Origin: a virus
Strand: one strand, 5' to 3'
Length of the DNA stretch: 64,000 bases
IMG/VR virus record: IMGVR_UViG_3300032132_000001
Location: 170,573-234,572 of that record
Shown: one piece after another, positions 1,667 to 32,020 of the stretch
Numbering within the stretch: the first letter of the stretch is position 1
How the letters are laid out: every line of letters begins with the position of its first letter
Position numbers and translations under genes: made by a program
Notes under the pieces: model-generated
The model's input: only the letters and a program-made list of their open reading frames with translations
Told to the model about the DNA's origin: nothing
The model's database searches: none

Positions 1667-2052
1667 TGGTGGAGACGGCGGGAATTGAACCCGCGTCCCG
1701 TAGCCGTTTTCTACAACCGTCTACGCTCATATCTCTCGGTTTGTTCTCGAAACCTAGCCGCGCAAGAGCACGCTGCCAAGCCTCTAGCTGATTTAGGTTG
1801 TCAGATCCAGCCCCTACAGCGCGGAGCGTTCACTTATCTCATCTGACGGCCGGCTATCATTCCCGATGAGCGAGGATTGGAGCCGGGCTCGTGCCGTTAG
1901 GCTGCGATCCGCGCGGGAGCGCGGAAAGCGTCGAGCGAGAGTACGTTGGTTTCGCCACGTAAAAGGCGTGTTTTCAGGGTTTAACGAGGCCACCTGAAAC
2001 CTCGGAGCGCAGATTGTAAAAGAACAAGCCCGGTCGATCCCATTTCGTCCCC
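1667..2052 (-). ncRNA. ssrA: tmRNA (ssrA), one-piece, ~386 nt
   Basis: Reverse complement starts GGGGACGAAATGGGATCGACCGGGC and ends GGGACGCGGGTTCAATTCCCGCCGTCTCCACCA. Both match the E. coli tmRNA tRNA-like domain (GGGGCUGAUUCUGGAUUCGACGGG ... GGACGCGGGUUCAACUCCCGCCAGCUCCACCA). An internal reading frame ends ...GCT TTC CGC GCT CCC GCG CGG ATC GCA GCC TAA (...AFRAPARIAA stop), a candidate tag. Confidence 0.8.
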
Positions 2053-2101
2053 GGGTGCCTCTGATATTTGCTTTCATCGGCACAAGCTTAGATACGCGCC
2101 G

Positions 2102-2416
2102 CTAAAGAGATCCCTTGTGCCTCTTCACGATGTGGTTCACCCAGAACTCCCATTCTGTGATATTGAGTGCTGAGATTGTGCCGTCAATCCTATATGTCTG
2201 ACCAAAGGTGGTGACTACACCGATGCCTCTCTTAGGATGGACTTCTACGTAGTCGATTTGACTTGCGTGGATCAAAGCGGGGGCAGGAGCGACAACACCC
2301 TCATGGACCGCCTGCAATATAAGGTCGCCAGTGCGCTTATTCAGCGCAAAGCAAGCACTTATAGAGCCTAGGACGTCTGCAAACAGACCGTAGCTCTTTT
2401 CACGGAGTGTTATCAT
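2102..2416 (-). CDS. hypothetical protein (104 aa)
   Basis: ORF track; operon-like packing with neighbours on the minus strand. Confidence 0.45.
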   Translation of the reverse strand: MITLREKSYGLFADVLGSISACFALNKRTGDLILQAVHEGVVAPAPALIHASQIDYVEVHPKRGIGVVTTFGQTYRIDGTISALNITEWEFWVNHIVKRHKGSL

Positions 2417-3083
2417 CTAAAATTCTCTGCTCTGGCTCTGAGTGCTCCAACACCGGCACGGACATCTTTTTCTTTAGTTCCGCGAGGCCGGTCTGGATTG
2501 CAACGGTGGTTAGGAAATTATCTATCTCGGCCTTAGCCTGAGTGACAACTTTTCCGATGTTTTCCCCGAAGCATTCTGCCAAGAATGGTGCAGAGTCGCT
2601 GATCCAGCGATAAGTTCTATAGGTGATATCTCGTAGCGCTTCTTTATCTGCTTTGTTGATTCTCGGTTTGCTGAGAATCTCTTCTTGTTCGTCGCAAATC
2701 TTCCCGAGGTTCGCAATTAATTGTTCTATATCTTTCTTGAACGTTTCCCGGACTTTTGTGGCTTCTGGAACCTGGCTTGGTGGTTCTTCTACCCCTTTCC
2801 CTTCATATCTTATGATGGTGCACGGGACACCATCGCCCACGTTCATAGTCGTGAGAAGCTGGGCGAATTGGGCGGGACTAAAGGCCACCTCAATATATTG
2901 CTTACCACTCCTGTGTACCCAGTCCCTACCAAGATGGTGTTCGACCTCGGCAGGGGCGATTCTAAGCATCACCATGCTCTGACATTGGACGTGCGACTGG
3001 AAAAGCGGCATGCTACCTGTGACGCGAGAAAAGCCAGCTAGCGCGTAACTTGGGTGACTTTCTTTTTCGCTTCGCTCTTTCAT
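2400..3083 (-). CDS. hypothetical protein (227 aa)
   Basis: ORF track; overlaps the downstream gene by 17 nt (translational coupling). Confidence 0.5.
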   Translation of the reverse strand: MKERSEKESHPSYALAGFSRVTGSMPLFQSHVQCQSMVMLRIAPAEVEHHLGRDWVHRSGKQYIEVAFSPAQFAQLLTTMNVGDGVPCTIIRYEGKGVEEPPSQVPEATKVRETFKKDIEQLIANLGKICDEQEEILSKPRINKADKEALRDITYRTYRWISDSAPFLAECFGENIGKVVTQAKAEIDNFLTTVAIQTGLAELKKKMSVPVLEHSEPEQRILDDNTP

Positions 3084-3331
3084 CGGTATTCCTTCAATGC
3101 TTGAAGCACAGCTTTCTGACCTTTCTCTACTACCAAGCCCACGATAACTGACATAAGAGGAGTTACCTGAACGGGCTTTTCAGGGTCTTCTGGGATAGTG
3201 TACATGAAGGTCATGCTTGGAGCGAACGACGTGCTCGTTTTTATAGTCACTCGGATCCGAGAACTTTCAATGATGACCTTGATAGGGATTATGCCCTCGG
3301 CCAAGAGCAGTTCTCGGATCCGCGCTTCCAT
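3080..3331 (-). CDS. hypothetical protein (83 aa)
   Basis: ORF track; 4-nt overlap with the upstream gene. Confidence 0.4.
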   Translation of the reverse strand: MEARIRELLLAEGIIPIKVIIESSRIRVTIKTSTSFAPSMTFMYTIPEDPEKPVQVTPLMSVIVGLVVEKGQKAVLQALKEYR

Positions 3332-4244: not shown

Positions 4245-4576
4245 TAACTTGCTAGCTCCGTGATGAATTGCTCGATCCGCCCAAATGCTATGATGTCGTG
4301 CGGATCGCGGAAGGCGTCGGGGCATTTACCATACCACCGACTGATGATTATTAGTTCGTGTTCATTGAAGATAAGCTCACCATAGCGCAGATCTCCTGAT
4401 TCGATCGCATTTTTAATGCGTATTGATAGCTTACAATCGACTTTAGTCCGTTCTGCGTTTTCTACAAAACCAAACCAGTCGTTGACAATCCGACATTCTG
4501 ATTTCGACAGTTGCAAATATGATTGTTGTCTCATAACTACCCCTACAATTCTCTCAAGAAGTTCTCTGATAGTCAT
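4244..4576 (-). CDS. hypothetical protein (110 aa; an internal Met at 4534 with an AGGGG RBS is an alternative start)
   Basis: ORF track; start ambiguity noted from sequence. Confidence 0.4.
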   Translation of the reverse strand: MTIRELLERIVGVVMRQQSYLQLSKSECRIVNDWFGFVENAERTKVDCKLSIRIKNAIESGDLRYGELIFNEHELIIISRWYGKCPDAFRDPHDIIAFGRIEQFITELAS

Positions 4577-5912
4577 TCCTGATTACCTGGACTCCATCGA
4601 ATCCTTTGTTGTATCTCTGGTGATGGTCGATACCATCACCCAGGTCGCACAAAAAGCGTTTCACTTGCTCTGATGCAAACCCGGTGTTGATTGGTCGTGT
4701 AGCGGTCTTACCTTGCAGCATTAGGCGTTGATGCTCTTCCTGCCGGCTATGTCCGAGAAGAACGCTTTCCATCATTTCGTCTTCCATAGCCAGCTGAGCC
4801 CGCTGTTCATCTAACTTGCGAGCTATTGCTACGTCGTCCACTTTCAGCTTGTCTAATACACTAAGTACTGAGAGAAGGACCCCATCCACAGCTAGGAATA
4901 GCTCAGGGATAACTATCCTTCTAACAGCGCTATCATCGAGTGACCTTTCTAGCCACTGCGTAGCATAAGTGGTAGCCATAGATGATGCGTTGGAGATTAC
5001 GAAGCGCGAGAGCGAGCAGATTCGTTCACTGATGATAGGGTTACACTTGAAAGGCATAGCGGAAGACCCTACTTGACCGCCGTCCTTGGCTTCTACGACC
5101 TCTCCGGTGTGAGAGAGTAGTCGAATGTCGTGAGCGAACTTAGAAGCTACCTCTGCTACAAGAGACAGCTCTTTGGATAGTATGGAATCTTCGATACGCG
5201 AGTAGGTCTGGTTGCATATCATCCCATTAGGGTCAACAGCCTGGAACATCAAGCAATGTTGGAGGTGATAGTTTATATTGGCTACAGCGCTCTGGTCCCC
5301 GTCGAATAGGGTGTGCATCGATGCTTGTGTTCCCACTGCGCCCCGGACACCACGGAGTTGCATATTCTCGATGAACTCTACGATACGGTCTGCTACTCGC
5401 AGAAAATCGTTGGCCCATGAAACAGCACGTCGAGATACTGTGGTCGGCTGCGCGGGTTGGAAGTGGGTGTAACCTAGAGTTGGTTTGTCCCTATGTTCTT
5501 CGATGAAATCACGCAGCAGCGTAAGGACACCAATCAGGTGGCCGTGGATTAAGAGCAGAGCTTGCCGATATAAGATGATATCGGAGTTATCCGTCACGAA
5601 GCAGCTGGTGGCACCCAGGTGGATAATCTTCCCACCTTCTGGGCATAGATCAGCCCAAGCTTTTATATGTGCCATCACATCATGGCGCATCTCGGCTTCA
5701 TATGCGGATATACGATCCCACTGGAAATTCCCTTTAGTGTCCTCTAATTCTTGGATCTGCCCATCAGTGATCGGGAGACCGGCTCGTTGTTGCGCTTGCG
5801 CGAGAGCAATCCAAAGCTCCCGCCAAATGGCATATCTCTTGTTCTGATCGAACAAGAGATCCATAGGGACACTTGCATAGCGTTCCGTTAGAGGGCTACG
5901 GTATCCGCTCAT
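4554..5912 (-). CDS. purB: adenylosuccinate lyase (PurB), fumarate-lyase superfamily
   Basis: 452 aa; signature GSSAMPFKCNP (family signature GSSxMPxKxNP); THFQPAQPTT matches PurB THGQPATPST; overall collinear with E. coli PurB. Confidence 0.85.
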   Translation of the reverse strand: MSGYRSPLTERYASVPMDLLFDQNKRYAIWRELWIALAQAQQRAGLPITDGQIQELEDTKGNFQWDRISAYEAEMRHDVMAHIKAWADLCPEGGKIIHLGATSCFVTDNSDIILYRQALLLIHGHLIGVLTLLRDFIEEHRDKPTLGYTHFQPAQPTTVSRRAVSWANDFLRVADRIVEFIENMQLRGVRGAVGTQASMHTLFDGDQSAVANINYHLQHCLMFQAVDPNGMICNQTYSRIEDSILSKELSLVAEVASKFAHDIRLLSHTGEVVEAKDGGQVGSSAMPFKCNPIISERICSLSRFVISNASSMATTYATQWLERSLDDSAVRRIVIPELFLAVDGVLLSVLSVLDKLKVDDVAIARKLDEQRAQLAMEDEMMESVLLGHSRQEEHQRLMLQGKTATRPINTGFASEQVKRFLCDLGDGIDHHQRYNKGFDGVQVIRNDYQRTS

Positions 5913-8180: not shown

Positions 8181-8455
8181 AATGGTTATTTGGGAAGCGA
8201 GAAAAACCCGCAGAGAAAGTACATATTGTAGTAGAACTTAGGGTCTCAGGGAAGCTAGAGCTAAGTGGCGAAGGACTCGGAAAAGTGGAGAGTGCCGAAC
8301 GAGGACCGGGAAGGTTCTCTGACGTCTCCATATCTGAACCTACAGCCAGGGCAGAAACTGCCGCCCAAAGTCCAAAAAGAGCTGAACCGACTATCTCGCC
8401 AGACTTCTTTGCCGATGACGGATCTACTCCGGATGATTTCGGCAAAGAAGTGTGA
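8165..8455 (+). CDS. small acidic protein (96 aa) immediately upstream of the actin-like gene; candidate adaptor or partner
   Basis: ORF track; its stop is followed by GGAGGA and then the ATG of the actin-like gene. Confidence 0.4.
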   Translation: MATMLEWLFGKREKPAEKVHIVVELRVSGKLELSGEGLGKVESAERGPGRFSDVSISEPTARAETAAQSPKRAEPTISPDFFADDGSTPDDFGKEV

Positions 8456-8468
8456 CGGAGGATACTAC

Positions 8469-9497
8469 ATGAATAGAATAGGGCTTGACGTCGGAACCAA
8501 GAACATCGTTCTTGCATATCGCGACGGTAACAAGAAAATCAAGTTCAAAAGGGAGATTAACGGGTTCCTCTCTATCGAGAAGACTGACGGCTTCATGGGC
8601 CAGATGTTGAAGATGCAGAAGGTCCCGGTAATCGAACGCGACGATAGGTTTATTGCTCTGGGGCAAAAGGCTGAAGAGATGGCCTATGCTTTCGGCAACT
8701 TCTTGCGCAGACCGATGGAACAGGGTGTCCTGTCGGTCGGTGAAGACGAGGCGATGAAGATTGTATCCGCTATCATCAAGGGAATCATCGGCAAGTTGAA
8801 GGACGACACAGTCCTATATTACTGTGTCCCCGCCAAAGCGGTAAATGCTGAAGTGAATGTCCAGTTCCACCAGAAGATCGTCCAGGCTATTGTGGACTCA
8901 TATCGTTCTGATGAGTTCAAGCTGGTCGGACACCCGATGAACGAGGCTCGTGCTATCGTTCTGTCCCAAATCCCAGATAAGACCGGAATCGCGGTGAGCT
9001 TTGGCGCTGGTATGGTCAACGTTTCCTACTGCATGTTCGGCCTGCCGATCTACGAATTCTCTATCGTTGGTAGTGGAGACTGGATCGATGTAGAGACCGC
9101 CCGAGTAACTGGTAACTTAGAGGAAGACGAGCACGGAAAATCAAAAGCTGCCCAACTAGTAACCAAAGCCAAAGAAGAGATAGATCTTAGTAAGGGTATG
9201 CCCAGCGACAATCTAAGCCGCGCCATATACATCAACTACGGCCTTCTGATCGACAATGTAGTAAAAGGTATAGTAGAAGGCTTTATGAAGAACGAAAGTA
9301 AAGCGAGATCAGGCAAACCCATGCCAGTGATTTGCGCAGGTGGTACTTCCTCACCAAATGGCTTCCTTGAGATGTTCGCTAACGCGTTCCAGAAAGAGAA
9401 GATGCCATTTGATGTAGGCGAGATTTCCCGCGCACCAGAGCCACTCTACGCGGTGGCCGAAGGTTGCCTCATAGCGTGTGAATTGCATGAGGAGTAG
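8469..9497 (+). CDS. actin-like ATPase (MreB/ParM/Hsp70 superfamily), 343 aa
   Basis: The track ORF 8265..9497 has a 68-aa N-extension. I call the start at ATG 8469 (GGAGGA at -14..-9). Motifs collinear with MreB: phosphate-1 GLDVGTKNIVLAY, phosphate-2 VSFGAGMVNVS, adenosine PVICAGGTSSPNGF. Confidence 0.7.
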   Translation: MNRIGLDVGTKNIVLAYRDGNKKIKFKREINGFLSIEKTDGFMGQMLKMQKVPVIERDDRFIALGQKAEEMAYAFGNFLRRPMEQGVLSVGEDEAMKIVSAIIKGIIGKLKDDTVLYYCVPAKAVNAEVNVQFHQKIVQAIVDSYRSDEFKLVGHPMNEARAIVLSQIPDKTGIAVSFGAGMVNVSYCMFGLPIYEFSIVGSGDWIDVETARVTGNLEEDEHGKSKAAQLVTKAKEEIDLSKGMPSDNLSRAIYINYGLLIDNVVKGIVEGFMKNESKARSGKPMPVICAGGTSSPNGFLEMFANAFQKEKMPFDVGEISRAPEPLYAVAEGCLIACELHEE

Positions 9498-21314: not shown

Positions 21315-22286
21315 ATGTCGAAATATCGTTTATCCCCAAAGCCAGGGATAATAAGAGTAAACAAATCGATCACTATCAGGACTGCTCCTTCTCTCCCAAA
21401 GCGGAACGGAGTCATATCCGTCCGTAGCCGAGCGACAAAGCCAGCGCATAAATTAAAACAGCGTCAGGCGGTTCCGTCAACCCCTGTTCCCCGCTCAGCT
21501 CACGAACGTCCAAATACAAAGAAAGCGGATCGTATTATTCGACGCCACCGTAAACATGAGGTGGTTAACCCACGCCGACGTACCTCATCAGTACTGAGAG
21601 ACCGGCAACGCGATATTCTCTCCAAGTACACTGACAAGGTTAGAAACCTTAGGGACGTTGGAAAGGGTAAGGTACTAGTAATTGTTGCTTGTGGTCCTTC
21701 TATTCTCCAGGCTGAGATTGGTCGCCTAAAGAACCATCCGCTCATAGACACTATGTCTATCAATAAGCCCGATAAGAGGGTGTGGCCCTCCACTTATTGG
21801 GTATTTTGTGACTATAGCCAGTACAACCGGAATAGGGAAATTTGGGATCCTTATCGTGGAACGATCCTCAACCCGTCATCTATGAGAGCCAGGCATCCGA
21901 ACCAGATTCTCATCAAGAATCTTGGAGGTAAGGGATTCTCCAAGAACCTTCTGAAGGGATATCATATTGGTCGTTCCACTACGTTCGCCAACATGCAAAC
22001 TGCGCTGTGGATGAACTATGATAAGATTTATATCTTCGGGTGTGATATGACCGACGTGAACGGTCGAATGCATTACTATGGCCAGAACCCCGACGTCGAA
22101 GATGCCAACCGGATGAAGAGGTTTGGCACAGAAGCCGAGTATTACATGCACGCAGCAGATACCATGACGGAAGTGGAGAGAGCCAAGTTTGTCTTCTGTT
22201 CATCCTACAATAAATGGCCGTTCGTGAAGAAGTTCCAGCAGCTTGACCAGACAAAAGCTGTAGATCATATTCTTTCAAATATATAG
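21315..22286 (+). CDS. GT42/DUF115-like (Maf/Cst-type) putative glycosyltransferase
   Basis: 323 aa; VLVIVACGPSILQAEI and YIFGCDMT resemble Cst-I-type IIAGNGPSLKEID and YLSGIDFY. It sits at the position the alpha-glucosyltransferase occupies next to gene 55 in T4. Confidence 0.35.
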   Translation: MSKYRLSPKPGIIRVNKSITIRTAPSLPKRNGVISVRSRATKPAHKLKQRQAVPSTPVPRSAHERPNTKKADRIIRRHRKHEVVNPRRRTSSVLRDRQRDILSKYTDKVRNLRDVGKGKVLVIVACGPSILQAEIGRLKNHPLIDTMSINKPDKRVWPSTYWVFCDYSQYNRNREIWDPYRGTILNPSSMRARHPNQILIKNLGGKGFSKNLLKGYHIGRSTTFANMQTALWMNYDKIYIFGCDMTDVNGRMHYYGQNPDVEDANRMKRFGTEAEYYMHAADTMTEVERAKFVFCSSYNKWPFVKKFQQLDQTKAVDHILSNI

Positions 22287-22566: not shown

Positions 22567-23169
22567 ATGAAACTATTAAAGGGGACTCGTTGTTATCTTG
22601 CCGGCCCGGTTGACAACGACGAAAACGCCGACAGTTGGCGTAACCAGATCACCTCAAGCCTCCTAGTCCCCTTAGGGATTACGGTCTACGATCCGCTAGT
22701 GAAAGCGGAGTGGATGACTGATAAAACTAAAGTCAACCCACGCTTGTACTATGAGCACCTCTACAGTGGCGAGATTGCTAGGCAAGAATACGTCTTTGAC
22801 GCTCTAGCAGAACTCAGAGCTGTATGCATGGCGGCCGTCAGCGCAGCTGAGTTTATCATCTGCCATCTCCCCAAGACCACATTTACTTGGGGCACTATCG
22901 ATGAAATCCAGCATATGAGGAAGAGCAACAAGCCAGTGTTTTTCCATGCGCCAGACGGAGTACCGTCTACATGGGGCCTTGAACAATTCGCGAAACCCTA
23001 CAACTGGGAGCAGGTATTTTTCAAGAATTGGCATGATCTTACGGAACACATCCTACAGATAGATAATGGTGAAGTAGAACTGGACCCGATACAGTGGTTT
23101 TCGGTGGCCCACGAACAGGATAAATTGAAGCTATGGAACTTTACACGATCACTAGCCGCTTCGAGATAA
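22567..23169 (+). CDS. nucleoside 2-deoxyribosyltransferase-family protein (NDT/DNPH1-like; possible dNMP N-hydrolase)
   Basis: 200 aa; N-terminal CYLAGPVDND (family motif YLAG/YFGA-P); putative catalytic Glu in TWGTIDEIQHMRKSNKPVFF, aligning with L. leichmannii NDT GLGMELGYA. Confidence 0.5.
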   Translation: MKLLKGTRCYLAGPVDNDENADSWRNQITSSLLVPLGITVYDPLVKAEWMTDKTKVNPRLYYEHLYSGEIARQEYVFDALAELRAVCMAAVSAAEFIICHLPKTTFTWGTIDEIQHMRKSNKPVFFHAPDGVPSTWGLEQFAKPYNWEQVFFKNWHDLTEHILQIDNGEVELDPIQWFSVAHEQDKLKLWNFTRSLAASR

Positions 23170-23888
23170 ATGTTCTCGAATCTAATGTAAACCCAATCAC
23201 AGCAGCAGATTGGGCTCAGAAGCACCGATGCCCCGCTGTCGTGGTCGGCCCACAGCACGTTGCGCCCCTCATGGCGAACAGAGCCGCAAAGAGCGGCCAG
23301 TATCACATCATCGCAGCTCTTGATTTCCCAAAGGGTAGCCATTTTGCGATGGACAAGCTCCGAATCGCAGGCCAAGATTTTAGCGTATGTGATGGGGTAG
23401 ACGTCCTGCTCACGGGTGGTCGCACCCAGGTAGAGACGCGGAACGAAATCAAGGCGCTCTATGAATTCCTACGTGCTATGAACATGTACGAGATACGTTA
23501 TGTTCTGGGCGCATACACGCGCTCGCGTGAGGAACTAGTAAACATGCTTGTAGGCATGAAACAGTTCCCGCCACGATGGATTCGACTTGACCAACACATG
23601 CGGAAACCCAATGTCGCGACCGGCCATCACAAGGGGATGGCCGAGCTTTTCAAGCTGCACATGCCCACGCCCCTAAAGGTGGGATGCAATGTTGACTGGG
23701 ACACAGTCAAGGCTCTAAGAGATACCAAATTCCGCTTTGATGTCACGCTCGACCAGGCAATCGGCATCGTGAAGGATTATGAGAAGGAAGAACGAGAGAA
23801 AGCTGAGCAAAAGCGGCTGGACTTGGCTGCCGTAGCAGAAAAGGCAATCAAGGAAGCTGATAAAGTACAGCTTCACGATGCGGATTGA
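23133..23888 (+). CDS. TIM-barrel protein with weak DeoC (deoxyribose-phosphate aldolase)-like features
   Basis: 251 aa; IIAALDFPKG vs DeoC IATVTNFPHG. The position of the DeoC Schiff-base Lys (FIKTSTGK) reads WIRLDQH, so activity is uncertain. Overlaps the NDT-like gene by 37 nt. Confidence 0.3.
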   Translation: MELYTITSRFEINVLESNVNPITAADWAQKHRCPAVVVGPQHVAPLMANRAAKSGQYHIIAALDFPKGSHFAMDKLRIAGQDFSVCDGVDVLLTGGRTQVETRNEIKALYEFLRAMNMYEIRYVLGAYTRSREELVNMLVGMKQFPPRWIRLDQHMRKPNVATGHHKGMAELFKLHMPTPLKVGCNVDWDTVKALRDTKFRFDVTLDQAIGIVKDYEKEEREKAEQKRLDLAAVAEKAIKEADKVQLHDAD

Positions 23889-24237
23889 GGCGGCTTGCCC
23901 AAAGTGTGGGAAGCTCAACGTCCTGATCTCTGAAGGCTGGCATGACGTTGGGTTCATGCCAGTGGAGTGTTCTAACTGCTTAGTCCTCTATTGGGGCGAA
24001 GTGTTCTCCGATATAGAAAAGAGCGTAATATCGGAGACCAAGCAGTTTCTCAAAGAAGAGATCCCGGAGCTTGAAGAGGGCACTGAGGTGTTCTTGATCC
24101 ATCGTGACCACAAATACCACCTAGAGCCAGGGGTGGTAATAGATAGAGATCACAAACACTATAGGATCAAGTTTCACGACGACAAGGTGATTTGGTTTCC
24201 TTCCAATCTGGTCCAGAAGATCCCGGATGAATTATGA
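23878..24237 (+). CDS. Zn-ribbon protein (119 aa)
   Basis: ORF track; CPKCGK...ECSNC. Confidence 0.4.
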   Translation: MRIEAACPKCGKLNVLISEGWHDVGFMPVECSNCLVLYWGEVFSDIEKSVISETKQFLKEEIPELEEGTEVFLIHRDHKYHLEPGVVIDRDHKHYRIKFHDDKVIWFPSNLVQKIPDEL

Positions 24238-24971
24238 TCATAGCAGGGACTGATACCGAAACCACCGGGCTAGATCCAAAGAAAGACGAGATAGTAGAAC
24301 TCGCTCTTTGGGTTTGTGATACTAGAGATCCTAGCTCACCATTATTCGCATATAGTACCCTGTTCGATGTGAACAGATGGAATCCAGAAGTAGCCAAGAT
24401 TCATAAAATCCCAGAAGAGATGTCAAAGCTAGGGATCGACACCGCCGATATAGATCCATATGAAATGTTAGCTGCCTATGACCCTCAATATGTCCTAGCC
24501 CATCGTGCTACATTCGATTTTGAATTTATGATGGAGCATTGGCCAGAGGTAAAAAGGTGGAACTGGATGTGTTCTAAGTTCGACCTACCCCATGAAGATA
24601 TCATAGGAAAGTATAGGTCGAGCAGGCTGATGCACTTGGCTGTTGACTATGGCCTGCCTGTGACGAGCTGGCACCGCGCCATGGTTGATGCTCAGAAGGT
24701 CTGCGAAATTGCATCGTTCCACAATTTGAATGCGGCATATGAACGTTCTCTGGAGCCTACTTTCCAAATCAAGGCGTGGGGTAAATACTCCATCGACCAC
24801 AAGGAAAAGCTGAAGGAAGAGAAGTTCTGGTGGAACTCAGAAGAACGCAAGTGGGTGAAAGAGCACATCGTATCTGATGAGCTTGAACGCCTGGTTGATC
24901 TCGCTAACGAACGGGATGACTGGGAGGTAGAAGTAGAAGAACACCCACCCCGGAGCTATAATGCAGATTAA
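24234..24971 (+). CDS. DnaQ-like 3'-5' exonuclease, DEDDh family (T4 DexA-like)
   Basis: 245 aa; exo I GTDTETTGLD, exo II HRATFDFEFM, exo III WHRAMVDAQ. Confidence 0.7.
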   Translation: MIIAGTDTETTGLDPKKDEIVELALWVCDTRDPSSPLFAYSTLFDVNRWNPEVAKIHKIPEEMSKLGIDTADIDPYEMLAAYDPQYVLAHRATFDFEFMMEHWPEVKRWNWMCSKFDLPHEDIIGKYRSSRLMHLAVDYGLPVTSWHRAMVDAQKVCEIASFHNLNAAYERSLEPTFQIKAWGKYSIDHKEKLKEEKFWWNSEERKWVKEHIVSDELERLVDLANERDDWEVEVEEHPPRSYNAD

Positions 24972-25872
24972 AGAACCCAAAGTCGCTTTCGTAGCAGCTA
25001 GTGATATCGAACGGGAAGGGCTGGAAGCATACCTGGAAGACATCGGAGCCCCAGAATTTGAGTTGAATGCGCCCTCCGGGGCGGAACAGCTCGTCACTAT
25101 CGGCGGAAAGCTCTGCTACAAGTCTTTTGCCCCTGGGCTCAACCCGAACGTCTCCAAAGTCCGCAACGATAACGAACAATATATCGGAAATATCAACAAA
25201 GTAGGGCATGGCAGTGTGGTGGAACACGCCAACGTCTCTTTCATCTTCTGGAATGTCAGCCGCGTCTTCACGCACGAGCTGGTGCGACATCGGGCCGGTA
25301 CTGCGATGTCACAAGAGTCGCTACGATACGTCCGTCTCACTGACCTATCGTTTTGGGTTCCGCAGATCATCGACAAACACGACAATGAGAAGGGAGAAGG
25401 CCGCAGCTTGATGCTGAATACGGTCATCTACCTCGAAGAAGTCCAGAAGAAGCTGGCTGAGATCTATGGTATCGAAGATATCAAGAATTTCGGTCTGAAG
25501 AAGAAGCTCACCTCAGCGTTCCGCCGCGTAGCTCCGATTGGGCTCGGTACTGCTATCATGTGGACCATGAACTTGCGAGCCGCTCGTCACCTGATTCAGA
25601 TTCGCACTTCTCGCCACGCCGAAGAAGAGATCCGGATGGTGTTCGACCAGGTTGCTCAGACCTTGGTAGAGAAATACCCCAACATGTTCCAAGACTTCGA
25701 TCGCTCTGAAGTGGATGGGCATGGCGAGTGGGTAGCAGAGCACGCGTCGATGCCATACGACTCCGAGAAAATCACGAAGCTCAAGAAGCAGATTGAGAAG
25801 CTAAAGACCGAAAACAGAGGACTGCGGGCGGCTCAAATGGAAGAGGGTTGCGGTCTCAAAGCGTACGATTGA
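24961..25872 (+). CDS. thyX: flavin-dependent thymidylate synthase ThyX
   Basis: 303 aa; ThyX motif RHRAGTAMSQESLRY (RHRx7-8S); a second copy of the fold in the C-terminal half (LRAARHLIQIRTSRHA). Confidence 0.8.
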   Translation: MQIKEPKVAFVAASDIEREGLEAYLEDIGAPEFELNAPSGAEQLVTIGGKLCYKSFAPGLNPNVSKVRNDNEQYIGNINKVGHGSVVEHANVSFIFWNVSRVFTHELVRHRAGTAMSQESLRYVRLTDLSFWVPQIIDKHDNEKGEGRSLMLNTVIYLEEVQKKLAEIYGIEDIKNFGLKKKLTSAFRRVAPIGLGTAIMWTMNLRAARHLIQIRTSRHAEEEIRMVFDQVAQTLVEKYPNMFQDFDRSEVDGHGEWVAEHASMPYDSEKITKLKKQIEKLKTENRGLRAAQMEEGCGLKAYD

Positions 25873-26037: not shown

Positions 26038-26241
26038 ATGGACATGTTTCCTATCATTGCCAAGTTGAAGAGATCTACTGGTATGACCCGGGTAGTGCCT
26101 ATGGGTGATGCTTCTGGGCTGTTCAGAATCGAAGCAGAATATGCTGATGGTTGGCAGCCTGTATTAGAAAACGTAACGCGCCCGGTCGCTCAATCGTTAA
26201 TTGAGCAGGCCAAGTCTACTAAGCAAGTGATTATAGACTAG
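26038..26241 (+). CDS. hypothetical protein (67 aa)
   Basis: ORF track; tightly packed between the small TM ORF and dcd. Confidence 0.4.
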
Positions 26242-26906
26242 TGTCTGAAGATCTAGATGGCGTCATGCTAGAATGGGGAAGAGAAATGTTTGACACCGAA
26301 CAGACAGAAACTCTAATGGGTCTTCTCCCTGATAATGCGATAAGCGCTCTGGCCCAAAAGGGGATGATAAGTCCGTTCGTGGAAGGGCAGAAACGAGAAG
26401 GTGTGATCTCGTACGGTCTGTCAAGCTATGGTTACGACATCCGAGTGAGCAGCGAATTCAAAATCTTCACTGACGTTCACTCTGTGTTAGTTGACCCGAA
26501 AAATTTCAACCCCAAGTCATTTGTAGATGTCGATGTGAGCGATGTGGACTCACAGGTCGTTGATCCGCAAATGAACAATGTAGCAATCATCCCGCCCAAC
26601 TCTTTTGCTCTTGCTAGAAGTGTTGAGTACTTTCGTATGCCAGACAATATCACTGGCATCGTCCTCGGCAAGAGCACGTACGCCCGCTGCGGAATCGTGA
26701 CCAACTTCACTCCGCTTGAAGCTGGATGGGAAGGCTACATCACGATCGAGATCAGCAACACGACGCCGCTCCCGGCGAAGATCTACGCCAACGAGGGCAT
26801 CGCCCAGGTGCTGTTCCTTGGAGGCGAGAGGTGTGATGTCACCTATCGTGACAAGAAGGGCAAGTATCAAGGACAAACTGGAATTACGCTGCCCAAGATC
26901 GGATGA
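26241..26906 (+). CDS. dcd: dCTP deaminase
   Basis: 221 aa; [16 protein letters not shown]; collinear with bacterial Dcd over the full length. Confidence 0.85.
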
Positions 26907-29620: not shown

Positions 29621-30565
29621 ATGCGATACCTGATAACAGGTGGATGTGGTTTCATCGGCTCTAACTTCATCCACATGCTCCTGAAGGAGCAAGAAGACGC
29701 CTTCGTTTTCTGTATTGACAATCTCCGCACTGGGGGAGATGTCAATAACGTGAAAGAAGTCTTTAGTAGTGACAGATTCGAATTTGAGTACTGGGGCATC
29801 TGTGACGGTCTGAGCCATATAATGGAGCAGGCTAGGCCAGACATCATAATAAACTTCGCAGCGGAAACGCACGTCGATCGAAGTATCGTGAATCCCAGAT
29901 TATTCTTAGAAACGAATATTATGGGGACTCACAATCTGCTAAATCACATGCAGAGAAACTATTATGACGGTGAAGTTACCAAATATGTCCAAATTAGCAC
30001 AGACGAAGTATACGGCTCGACTAAGACCGGTTTCTTCTACGAAAATTCTGAGATAAAACCTAGCAGCCCTTATTCAGCGAGTAAGGTTGCAGCAGACTTC
30101 ATAGCTCTATCTTACTATAAAACCTATGGGTCACCAGTGGTGATTACCAGATGTAGCAATAATTATGGGCCGAGACAATATCATGAAAAACTTATCCCAT
30201 TAGCGATCAAGAGAATCCAAAACGGCGAGAAGATTCCAGTGTACGGCACTGGTGAGAACGTGCGCGATTGGATCTATGTAGATGATCACTGCCGAGCTAT
30301 TCTCCAAGCGATAGAGTATGGTAAACTTGGAGAAGTGTACAATATCGGTGCACGCCAAGAGATGTCCAACCTAAAGATCCTTGCTCTACTCTGCGAGATC
30401 ATGGGCGTAGATTTCGAAGAGTCGATCGAGTTTGTAGAAGATCGAGCTGGTCATGACTTCCGCTATGCGATTATGCCGAACAAAGCAGAGACAGAGCTTC
30501 AGTGGAAGGCCCAGATGAACTTCTACGACGGTCTGAAGAGAACTGTAGACTGGTACAGCCAATAA
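29621..30565 (+). CDS. rfbB: dTDP-glucose 4,6-dehydratase (short-chain dehydrogenase/reductase family)
   Basis: 314 aa; ITGGCGFIGSNF Rossmann motif; catalytic YSASK; collinear with RfbB/RmlB. Confidence 0.8.
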   Translation: MRYLITGGCGFIGSNFIHMLLKEQEDAFVFCIDNLRTGGDVNNVKEVFSSDRFEFEYWGICDGLSHIMEQARPDIIINFAAETHVDRSIVNPRLFLETNIMGTHNLLNHMQRNYYDGEVTKYVQISTDEVYGSTKTGFFYENSEIKPSSPYSASKVAADFIALSYYKTYGSPVVITRCSNNYGPRQYHEKLIPLAIKRIQNGEKIPVYGTGENVRDWIYVDDHCRAILQAIEYGKLGEVYNIGARQEMSNLKILALLCEIMGVDFEESIEFVEDRAGHDFRYAIMPNKAETELQWKAQMNFYDGLKRTVDWYSQ

Positions 30566-30616: not shown

Positions 30617-32020
30617 ATGTTGGCAACAGATATCCTAACCAACCAAGGTGAGACGACCAAATGGGGCATCGATCCCAGTAATGGTCCACTCAATCTGACC
30701 ACCGCCGACGAGGTGGTCGAGTATGTCGAACAGAACAATATCAGATCTATCAGGATCTGGTTCACCGACATACTCGGTTTCCTGAAGTCCTTCTCGATCA
30801 CACCGCGCGAGCTTTCAAACGCCTTCGAAGAAGGTATGGGCTTCGACGGCTCTTCGATCCAAGGATACACCAGGATCAATGAAAGCGACATGGTGGCGAA
30901 GCCAGACCCAACCACTGCTCAGCTTATCCCGTTTCTTATCGGCGGTAAAGCGTCGATCCGGATGTTCGCAGACATCTACAATCCGGATGGTACTCCATAC
31001 GCAAACGATCCGCGCCAGATTCTGAAGAGGAATCTAAACGATCTGACGCTAATGGGAATCACGACAATGAACGTCGGCCCTGAGGCCGAGTTCTACTACT
31101 TCAAAAAAGCCGGTAGCACCGAGCTACTAGATAACGCCGGCTACTTCGACCTCAACCCGATCGACAATGGTGACAGTCTTCGTGAAATCACCATCACCGC
31201 TCTTGAAGCGATGGGCATCGAAGTCGAATACTCGCATCACGAGGTTGGTCCGAGCCAACACGAGATCGACCTCCGATTCTCTGACGCTCTGACGATGGCT
31301 GATAATCTCATGACCTATAAGTGGGTGGTCAAGGAGATTGCACATCGTGCTGGCGTCCACGCGACGTTTATGCCGAAGCCACTCGCAGATCAGAACGGCA
31401 GCGGGATGCACACGCACCTCTCTCTCGCCGGGCAAGAAGGGCAGAATATGTTCTTCGAAAAGAACGGCCCATCGTGCCTATCGCAGACCGCACAGGCATT
31501 CCTCGCAGGGGTACTGACCCACGCACAAGAGATCTGTCTGGTTACTAACCAGAGCTTCAACAGTTACAAGCGCCTGGTACCAGGCTACGAGGCTCCGGTA
31601 TACGTCGCCTGGTCTGCTCGTAACAGATCTGCCCTGGTGCGCATCCCAACTTACAAGCCCGGAAAAGAACAGGCGACGCGTATCGAACTGCGCTTCCCTG
31701 ACCCAGCATGTAACCCGTACCTAGCTTTCTCAGCAATGTTGCAGGCTGGGATCCACGGGATCCACAGCAAATCGACGCTTCCCGACTCGGTAGATCATGA
31801 CATCTACGAGTTGACTGCGATGGAGCGAGAGCAGCTCAACATCCCAGCTCTACCACATGACCTCTACTCCGCTATCAAGGCAGCAGAGAAGAGCGATCTG
31901 CTGAAGAAAGCGTTGGGCGAGGATACTTTCACCAACTTGATCGAGACTAAGTTGGAGGAAGACCTGAAGTACCGGACCCATGTTACCAACCGTGAAATCA
32001 CAGACTTTACGGTCTTGTAA
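30617..32020 (+). CDS. glnA: glutamine synthetase, type I
   Basis: 467 aa; GFDGSSIQGY; KPLADQNGSGMHTHLSL; RIPTYKPG...RIELRFPD; AGGAGAGA RBS. Confidence 0.8.
   Translation: MLATDILTNQGETTKWGIDPSNGPLNLTTADEVVEYVEQNNIRSIRIWFTDILGFLKSFSITPRELSNAFEEGMGFDGSSIQGYTRINESDMVAKPDPTTAQLIPFLIGGKASIRMFADIYNPDGTPYANDPRQILKRNLNDLTLMGITTMNVGPEAEFYYFKKAGSTELLDNAGYFDLNPIDNGDSLREITITALEAMGIEVEYSHHEVGPSQHEIDLRFSDALTMADNLMTYKWVVKEIAHRAGVHATFMPKPLADQNGSGMHTHLSLAGQEGQNMFFEKNGPSCLSQTAQAFLAGVLTHAQEICLVTNQSFNSYKRLVPGYEAPVYVAWSARNRSALVRIPTYKPGKEQATRIELRFPDPACNPYLAFSAMLQAGIHGIHSKSTLPDSVDHDIYELTAMEREQLNIPALPHDLYSAIKAAEKSDLLKKALGEDTFTNLIETKLEEDLKYRTHVTNREITDFTVL

Follow-up and report, generated by a model that had tools for sequence, protein, structure and literature searches.

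The stretch of DNA analysed here, hereafter the window, is 64,000 nucleotides (nt) long and covers positions 170,573 to 234,572 of the IMG/VR virus record IMGVR_UViG_3300032132_000001. It belongs to a 397,419-bp metagenomic contig of a T4-like jumbo myovirus that encodes a sheath, gp15, baseplate proteins, and an SbcCD-like pair. Two overlapping genes of the window, whose products we call P1 and P2, are the subject of this work. P1 resembles the nucleoside 2'-deoxyribosyltransferase (NDT) superfamily, and P2 resembles deoxyribose-phosphate aldolase (DERA, the product of deoC) with a rebuilt active site. We propose that the pair carries out the two-step removal, or the base exchange, of a canonical purine deoxynucleotide in this T4-like jumbo phage, a reading to which we give a probability of about one half. 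It draws on the folds and homologies of the two proteins, the conservation of their residues, and the linkage of their genes. We examined the window together with ~14 kb past its edges, as well as related loci in other contigs.

The P1 gene (22567..23169, plus strand) runs from an ATG start to a TAA stop and encodes 200 amino acids (aa), and the P2 gene (23133..23888, plus strand) runs from an ATG start to a TGA stop and encodes 251 aa. The 3' end of the first overlaps the 5' end of the second by 37 nt (23133..23169, plus strand). These are exactly the coordinates given in an earlier note on this DNA, which had read the two open reading frames (ORFs) as a possible module for the breakdown of deoxynucleoside 5'-monophosphates (dNMPs). 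Word-indexed searches returned 13 homologs for P1 and 10 for P2 (E 1e-38 to 1e-166), and an exhaustive profile search gave 218 cluster representatives for the P2 family, of which 195 have E<=1e-10, with identities down to ~21%. Given these strong homologs and the size of the P2 family, both ORFs are genuine genes and did not arise by chance. The N-termini of the homologs align from P2 residue 1-2, which supports the start at 23133 and, with it, a genuine overlap. An AGGA motif is found 13-16 nt upstream of the P2 ATG, within P1, and the C-terminal tail of P1 that is overlapped by P2 is a non-conserved section of the protein.

The AlphaFold2 (AF2) model of P1 (pLDDT 86) has a flavodoxin-like alpha/beta fold with a parallel sheet and, when compared with the PDB using Foldseek, matches solved structures of the NDT family. 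NDTs are the best matches (E 2.5e-5, TMt up to 0.71), followed by YtoQ, DNPH1, BcmB, and MilB. The best fold matches are thus nucleoside 2'-deoxyribosyltransferases of Pfam PF05014, such as the enzyme of Chroococcidiopsis thermalis (8pqt). These enzymes use covalent Glu catalysis, which is expected in P1 too. NDTs are also among the matches of P1 in the viral models of BFVD, where the third-best match is a 161-aa protein of Gordonia phage Ghobes, the length of the DmtZ protein gp53. DmtZ, an NDT-like protein of Ghobes described in 2026, hydrolyses deoxyadenosine 5'-monophosphate (dAMP) to adenine and deoxyribose 5-phosphate (dR5P), as determined experimentally; it also transfers dR5P onto 2-aminoadenine, and is enriched in the PurZ0 Z-genome phages (PMC12884076). 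We took gp53 of Ghobes (KX557278.1) as DmtZ, all 10 of the 10 published residue numbers being in agreement with it. Alignment of the P1 profile (40 non-redundant sequences) with the DmtZ profile (6 sequences) by hhalign gave a probability of 95.9% and an E-value of 5.8e-9 over 137 columns, at an identity of ~20-25% and with no BLAST-level match. P1 exceeds DmtZ in length by ~40-50 aa, with an insertion at about residues 49-75 and a C-terminal extension.

The positions that matter for catalysis in this superfamily can be followed from DmtZ to P1. The N-terminal motif Y10-L-A-G-P-V15-D16 of P1 (22594..22614, plus strand) corresponds to Y6-F-A-R-P-V11-D12 of DmtZ and is strongly conserved, Y10, G13, V/I15, and D/E16 being each present in 40/40 sequences. 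In DmtZ, Y6 is the Tyr of the triad, the N-terminal motif provides backbone contacts to the phosphate, Asp12 is proposed to read the 6-amino group of adenine, and Trp124 is the lid of the active site (PMC12884076). The stretch T107-x-G109-T-x-x-E113 (22885..22905, plus strand), equivalent to T97/G99/E103 of DmtZ, would hold the hydroxyl of the phosphate site and the Glu that acts as catalytic nucleophile, and T/S107, G109, and E113 are again found in 40/40 sequences. E113 lies at the start of the helix that follows strand beta4, in a G-[TS]-x-x-E motif. The lid residue has its counterpart in Trp136 (22972..22974, plus strand; Trp in 36/40 and Tyr in 4/40), which stands in S-T-W where DmtZ has S-S-W124, and both proteins have D-P-x-V-K after strand beta2. 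A Pro in the region of DmtZ Pro57 has been linked to the exclusion of water in transferases (PMC12884076). P43 of P1, after strand beta2, is Pro in 39/40 sequences, and hhalign pairs DmtZ Pro57 with P58 (Pro in 23/40), such that the true counterpart may be either P43 or P58. The two proteins differ at the third position of the catalytic triad, which is Asn77 in DmtZ and Cys87 in P1 (22825..22827, plus strand). This Cys, which the earlier note had missed, is invariant (40/40) and also aligns with D80 of DNPH1.

Human DNPH1 (Rcl), a 2'-deoxynucleoside 5'-phosphate N-hydrolase and 5-hydroxymethyl-dUMP N-hydrolase whose query sequence was first checked against PDB entries, has the same fold as P1, and both are linked to the conversion of a dNMP into a base and dR5P, which for P1 is a prediction. 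Its Y24/S98/G100/E104 fall on Y10/T107/G109/E113 of P1, in the same register as DmtZ. However, the two proteins are only 17% identical, the alignment probability is low (a single sequence was used), Asp80 is replaced by Cys87, and DNPH1 has Arg at Tyr+6, where P1 has Asp/Glu like DmtZ. The earlier description of P1 as NDT/DNPH1-like is thus borne out by the fold matches and by both alignments, and the Glu nucleophile that it proposed to look for in 22567..23169 is present as E113, the equivalent of DNPH1 E104 and DmtZ E103. In nucleoside transferases, the Asp that binds the 5'-OH falls, as we take it, where P1 has T107, and a hydroxyl residue in place of this Asp suggests a 5'-phosphorylated substrate. 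Judging from these alignments, P1 is best regarded as an NDT-superfamily protein, a remote homolog of DmtZ with a Tyr/Cys/Glu triad, and as a candidate (deoxy)nucleoside 5'-monophosphate N-glycosidase or dR5P transferase. Its only tblastn match in 50,697 deposited phage genomes is an NDT-like gene of the 595-kb uncultured phage LR756511.1 (locus L015, 4947-5516), which matches the P1 HMM at E 3e-21 and stands alone, with no P2 partner. In that protein an Asp seems, by eye, to lie near the triad position of the P1 Cys.

The AF2 model of P2 is of high quality (pLDDT 92.4, pTM 0.85) and consists of eight beta/alpha units that form a barrel, plus a long C-terminal helix (residues 206-248). The top 50 Foldseek matches in the PDB are all DERA or designs on its scaffold, with E-values down to 4.7e-10 and TM-scores of 0.65-0.80. 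In line with this, the alignment of the P2 family (151 members) matches a DERA profile built from 8 annotated plasmid deoC genes at 95.8% probability (hhalign, E 7.1e-9, 208 columns), at an identity of ~13%. When the single E. coli DeoC was used instead, only a local alignment of the beta6-beta7 region was obtained, at 0.3% probability. The DeoC-like TIM barrel of the earlier note is thus recovered by the DERA-only fold matches and by the profile alignment. We found no meaningful match to P2 in Pfam, PHROG, NCBIfam, or PADLOC, nor any relevant match when the sequences of the PDB were searched with three profiles and with the member P0022. Two members matched QRPTase_C weakly (E 0.0015), which over 79 scans we take for noise.

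Many of the active-site positions of DERA are kept in P2. E11 aligns with D16 of DERA (141/151), F65-P-x-G68 with F76-P-x-G79 (G68 in 134/151), and R201-F with R234-F (Arg in 112/151 and Lys in 17/151). The equivalents of both proton-relay residues are present: Asp90 (23400..23402, plus strand) at the catalytic Asp102, where 61 members have Asp and 90 have Glu (together 151/151), and K182 (143/151) at Lys201. The latter opens the stretch K182-V-G-C-N186 (23676..23690, plus strand), equivalent to K201-P-A-G204-G205, i.e. to the second active-site Lys and the phosphate loop, and position 185, which aligns with G204, is Gly in 133/151 members. As the most conserved positions of P2 are the catalytic positions of DERA, the pocket looks selected as a ligand-binding or active site. 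We also considered the invariant K75 and the near-invariant E105 as new catalytic residues, and rejected them since they correspond to the covarying K86-[ED]121 pair already present in DERAs; we read K75-E105 as a probable structural salt bridge.

The differences with DERA concern above all the lysines. The Schiff-base Lys167 on strand beta6, which is Lys in 8/8 reference DERAs, corresponds to Arg151 of P2 (23583..23585, plus strand; Arg in 146/151 and Lys in 5/151), and this pairing appears in both the local alignment with the single DeoC and the alignment with the 8-sequence DERA profile. The alteration of this Lys had been pointed out in the earlier note, which proposed to look for a Lys in the barrel of 23133..23888; K182, equivalent to K201, is kept there. 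On strand beta5, Arg122 (23496..23498, plus strand; Arg in 145/151) lies at, or no more than 2 residues from, Lys137 of DERA: the raw alignment sets K137 on E120, beside a 2-residue gap, such that the register is ambiguous by 2, and there is no Lys in this region. In addition, P2 has Val at the position of C47 and an extra C-terminal helix of ~45 residues, and its family is phage-only and paired with NDTs. From the fold and the shared positions, P2 is best read as a true but extremely diverged descendant of DERA/DeoC. Since it does not have the defining Schiff-base Lys of DERA, we consider a DeoC annotation inappropriate.

The rare members with Lys at position 151 are informative. Four of these five have a hydrophobic residue (Val/Ile) at position 182, and K182 is present in 142 of the 146 members with Arg151. 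The two positions thus covary (Fisher p 1.6e-5, uncorrected for phylogeny), and the Lys151 members share only 18-41% identity. This pattern fits a pocket that would need one Lys, which could be placed on beta6, like that of DERA, or on beta7, and in which Schiff-base chemistry would still be possible. The members with K151 and Val/Ile182 (P0155, P0162, P0169, and P0172) usually also have Cys/Ile at position 122. A link between Cys87 of P1 and the state of position 151 of P2 was considered and discarded, as the partner of a K151-type P2 also has the Cys. We put forward tentatively, and with less confidence than the general proposal, that the family is a phage-restricted class derived from DERA, in which the catalytic Lys would have moved from beta6 to beta7 with Arg151 as its charge partner, or in which Schiff-base chemistry would have been given up. 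It would be the obligate partner of an NDT N-glycosidase with a Tyr/Cys/Glu triad, and in jumbo T4-like phages the two enzymes together would irreversibly break down a canonical purine dNMP, or channel it elsewhere, by a route not described before.

The association of the two genes extends well beyond the window. We recovered with P2 a set of 10 syntenic loci, made of the window, 2 Logan contigs, and 7 IMG/VR contigs of up to 370 kb, and a P1-type gene is immediately upstream of P2 in all of them, with junctions that vary from an overlap of ~44 nt to a gap of 14 nt. These loci have a long syntenic block in common and their adjacency could partly be inherited. Yet, an NDT-fold gene is still directly upstream of P2 members at ~25% identity in loci with a different local gene order (L011, L012, and L014), and also of the very divergent members P0172, of the K151 type, and P0168. 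Furthermore, the long P1 type is not found in 7 PurZ-linked loci, where a short NDT-family protein (~130 aa) directly precedes P2. The short type has a canonical Tyr/Glu/Glu triad and the motifs IYVG[TS]SL ... G[TS]H.E.G, and has none of the insertions of the long type. It was found upstream of P2 in L097 (4473-4865), L138 (4125-4508), L145, L147, L156, L158, L171, and L187 (6460-6894). The NDT partner was swapped and the partnership retained, which is the strongest evidence of functional coupling between the two genes. In L187, which gives the context of P0168, two tandem DUF6065 genes (1800-3276, minus strand) lie near the pair.

The P2 family was seen on phage or metagenomic contigs only, and its sole label in any source is "hypothetical protein". 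We found no match to P2 or to the short-type NDT when searching the 50,697 deposited phage genomes with tblastn, and a pattern-limited scan of 185,579 species genomes with the P2 profile gave no relatives. We also found no description, in the literature that could be searched, of a DERA-like protein in PurZ phages, or of an NDT/DERA gene pair in phages. The phages with DmtZ are actinophage siphoviruses, such as Ghobes (gp53) and Arthrobacter phage Wayne, which has an NDT-Dut fusion, and they have no DERA-like gene, whereas P1 is paired with one and is found in T4-like jumbo phages.

The genomic context of the relatives points to the modification of adenine. A PurA-like gene lies a few genes downstream of P2 in 6/10 syntenic relatives, at the place occupied by ThyX in the window. 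Its best NCBIfam model is NF038379 (PurZ), its products align over ~95% of their length, at 28-35% identity, with the PurZ enzymes established for phiVC8 and SH-Ab 15497, and the diagnostic Ser that replaces Asp13 of PurA is invariant in 7/7 sequences. These genes are therefore of the PurZ type. A PurZ gene is also found nearby in L012, and ~170 kb away on the contig of L004. Overall, PurZ is on the same contig in 8/14 contigs with P2, the other 6 including short contigs and the window. Conversely, P2 is within ~6 kb in ~28 of the 79 PurZ loci that span 12 kb or more, in a sample where relatives of the query are over-represented and some entries are duplicated across two collections. P1 thus has in common with DmtZ not only the fold, the Tyr and Glu residues, the V-D at Tyr+5/+6, and the T-x-G before the Glu, but also its presence in phages and, in its relatives, the proximity of PurZ and of a gene with the dUTPase fold. 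Among cultured phages, the nearest to carry a related PurZ is Flavobacterium phage MaF61, where neither an NDT nor a DERA-like gene lies in the vicinity of PurZ.

A genome of the DmtZ type is expected to encode, besides PurZ or PurZ0, a partner that hydrolyses dATP (DutZ or DUF5664). In the window and the ~14 kb of flanks, the only genes that speak of such a context are a PurB-like adenylosuccinate lyase (4554..5912, minus strand; TIGR00928 purB, E 1.9e-90, 303.8 bits, just under the cutoff of 326.2) and the dCTP deaminase gene described below. Ghobes, which has a Z genome, carries an adenylosuccinate lyase gene of its own next to those for PurZ0 and DmtZ, and the PurB-like gene hints, in a circumstantial way, at a purine pathway of the PurZ type. 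In one relative, L001, whose P2 is 62% identical, two genes of the Mom family (PF25680; 7832-9217 and 14097-15479) flank the same nucleotide-metabolism block. No PurZ was found in the 16.7 kb of L001, and its Mom genes suggest that a different adenine modification is tied to the module there.

Taking these elements together, we infer the identity of the substrate, catalysis by P2, and, for this phage, a connection with base replacement, as follows. P1 and P2 would be a translationally coupled two-enzyme module. Glu113 of P1 would attack C1' of a deoxynucleoside 5'-monophosphate and release the base. The most likely substrate would be dAMP, our best guess in view of the V-D motif that resembles that of DmtZ and of a context centred on adenine. 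The dR5P would then be passed to water, i.e. hydrolysis, or to another base, i.e. transfer. The predicted product of P1, dR5P, is the substrate of the enzyme family from which P2 descends. P2 would receive this dR5P and most likely still cleave or convert it, using a rearranged pocket in which K182 on beta7, D90, and R151 replace the arrangement of K167, K201, and D102, and the hydrolysis would become irreversible. The adjacent exonuclease would supply dNMPs from DNA. In many relatives, the PurZ encoded next door would make dZMP, and the module would serve the pathway that leads to a 2-aminoadenine genome by clearing adenine nucleotides.

Several observations weigh against this proposal. First, P1 is below the gathering thresholds of Pfam (26.4 bits vs 30 for PF15891, E 9.5e-6; 19.6 vs 28.8 for PF05014, E 1e-3), and with Cys87 instead of Asp/Asn its chemistry or its leaving group may differ. 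Because of these thresholds and of the replaced triad residue, P1 is a variant rather than a plain member of the NDT family. Second, none of the 79 P2 members scanned matches Pfam DeoC (PF01791) at E<=1, the canonical Schiff-base Lys is replaced in 97% of the family, the Lys137 region has Arg instead of Lys, and 4 members have no Lys at position 151 or 182. Given the two Arg and the members without Lys, canonical class I aldolase chemistry is not assured. The two-step breakdown suggested in the earlier note thus fits the folds and the Glu of P1, and loses ground on P2 as a working aldolase. Third, no NDT gene is recognisable directly upstream of P2 in L049 and L113. Fourth, the proximity of PurZ is confounded by shared ancestry, since most loci fall within a single T4-like clade and loci linked to P2 had provided the PurZ query. 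Finally, none of PurZ, Mom, DatZ, and MazZ, nor any other gene for base modification, was found in the window (tblastn for PurZ and Mom) or in the ~14 kb beyond, and the contig of the window is absent from the PurZ matches of a pattern-limited metagenome scan. The idea that one canonical dNMP is depleted in favour of a modified base therefore finds a precedent in DmtZ, which does so with dAMP (PMC12884076), and an echo in the many relatives with PurZ next to the module, and no PurZ was found in the window itself. As for the two outcomes that had been named as fatal to the idea of a breakdown module, a P1 without the Glu geometry and a P2 folding as a non-aldolase barrel, we find the Glu in place and a barrel that matches aldolases.

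As an alternative, P1 might mainly transfer dR5P from a canonical dNMP to a non-canonical base, as a base-swap machine, with P2 as a non-aldolase accessory that might bind the dR5P moiety or P1 itself, contributing to water exclusion or specificity, or that might run a reaction without a Schiff base. DmtZ has genuine transferase activity, P1 keeps a Pro after strand beta2 (with the ambiguity on the equivalent of Pro57 given above), the loss of the Schiff-base Lys is expected if P2 is no aldolase, and the tight overlap of the genes suggests equal amounts of the two proteins, as in a complex. We nevertheless find this alternative doubtful. The conserved residues of P2 are at the active-site positions of DERA and there is no sign of a conserved surface patch, the covariation of K151 and K182 suggests that one catalytic Lys is always needed, and the short NDTs still pair with P2 even if they do not have the insertions of the long type, which argues against a specific docking surface.

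It is less likely still that P2 is a dead pseudo-aldolase, retained as a structural or regulatory partner of a P1 that does the chemistry alone. This would account for the lost Lys and for the lack of any sequence-level match between P2 and any DERA model. However, D/E90, R/K151, K182, E11, and R122 are nearly invariant over 218 divergent clusters, as is typical of a working pocket, and there are compensatory variants that have K151 and no K182.

The neighbourhood of the pair in the window bears on two further alternatives, in which the substrate is not a deoxynucleotide. P1 and P2 are the first genes of a chain that continues with a Zn-ribbon-like ORF, an exonuclease, and ThyX, with successive overlaps of 37, 11, 4, and 11 nt. 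The Zn-ribbon-like ORF (23878..24237, plus strand, 119 aa) overlaps P2 by 11 nt and belongs to cluster C13, which follows P2 in 7/10 loci. It is followed by a DEDDh 3'-5' exonuclease of the RNase T / DnaQ-like type (24234..24971, plus strand; Pfam RNase_T 2e-11, PHROG 192 1.9e-22, NCBIfam 3'-5' exonuclease 2.2e-17) and by the flavin-dependent thymidylate synthase ThyX (24961..25872, plus strand; TIGR02170, 102 bits vs a cutoff of 87.9). The dCTP deaminase Dcd, which has the fold of the dUTPase superfamily, is encoded further downstream (26241..26906, plus strand; TIGR02274, 6.9e-46, 156 bits vs a cutoff of 92.8), and its cluster (C19) comes directly after P2 in 3 relatives (L004, L008, and L009). 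The DexA-like, ThyX, and Dcd genes announced in the earlier note are thus all found. We considered Dcd as an equivalent of DutZ and rejected this, as the similarity is only at the level of the superfamily (21% over 119 aa with the DutZ of Ghobes) and NCBIfam classifies it as a canonical Dcd. The scan for promoters and terminators gave counts no higher than in shuffled sequence.

Within this string of deoxynucleotide-metabolism genes, with PurZ in the relatives, it seems very unlikely that the module targets ribonucleotides or nucleotide-derived immune signals, as a MilB/BcmB/LOG-like NMP hydrolase or as an anti-defence system. The NDT fold is common to CMP hydrolases and resembles TIR/SLOG domains, and the matches of P1 in BFVD include a TIR-domain protein and a CMP/hmCMP hydrolase. 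However, the specific homology of P1 is with DmtZ, P2 descends from an aldolase specific for 2-deoxyribose, and the PADLOC scan gave no matches.

The gene upstream of the pair encodes a 323-aa MptE-like or sialyltransferase-like protein (21315..22286, plus strand), an assignment that comes from two weak matches, both below cutoffs (Pfam PF01973 1.3e-3, PHROG 4603 2.5e-4). The protein has a strongly basic N-terminal tail of ~120 aa. Its conservation had been missed by the earlier note: this gene belongs to cluster C3, which occurs in 10/10 syntenic loci and also near the pair in L012, L097, L138, L147, L158, and L186. It usually precedes the NDT/DERA-like pair, rearranged loci included, for example in L012 (1876-2802), L097 (3483-4472), and L186 (5215-6276). 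The MptE-like protein may belong to the module as its third member, or act as a transferase directed at DNA. The least probable of the alternatives makes of these three genes a sugar or glycoconjugate pathway, for the glycosylation of DNA or of the virion, with an incidental link to nucleotides: the MptE-like gene does adjoin the pair even in rearranged loci, and genes for glycosyltransferases, sulfotransferases, and sugar dehydratases are nearby in the window and in relatives, but the assignment is weak (E 1e-3 to 2.5e-4), the closest characterised relative of P1 acts on dAMP, and the enzymes of the DERA family act on deoxyribose phosphate and not on nonulosonic sugars.

Other genes of the region deserve mention. 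Sugar-modification genes were noted in the window and in L185 (13023-13718): a dTDP-glucose/GDP-mannose 4,6-dehydratase-like epimerase (29621..30565, plus strand; PF16363 8e-75) is encoded in the window, a GT2 glycosyltransferase lies just past its right edge, and in the relatives genes for GT1, GT2, and sulfotransferases occur close to the module. A type I glutamine synthetase of full length (30617..32020, plus strand; TIGR00653 3e-150, above cutoff) belongs to cluster C37, with homologs in the relatives L006 and L007. Finally, an actin-like protein of the volactin family (8265..9497, plus strand; PF25216 7e-61) is followed by an ORF of 1019 aa without a family match.

Phages that rewrite the alphabet of their DNA must make the new nucleotide and also get rid of the canonical one. 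The module described here extends the DmtZ principle, known from small actinophages and dAMP, to T4-like phages of very large size, for which metagenomes are the only source. What it adds is an obligate partner, an undescribed and unannotated family of ~218 clusters that is descended from DERA and has a rebuilt active site. A preprint on the associations of dZ worked with Pfam domains, and P2, which has none, is invisible to studies of this kind; the P1/P2 pair could mark purine-modified genomes in metagenomes. If P2 is active, it would be a natural class I aldolase scaffold without the canonical Schiff-base Lys, of interest for the engineering of DERA. Coupling the removal of the base to the destruction of the sugar would render the depletion of the nucleotide irreversible and, if this is true, the pair would represent a third, convergent route, after DatZ/MazZ and DutZ/DmtZ, to clear adenine nucleotides in phages with 2-aminoadenine genomes.

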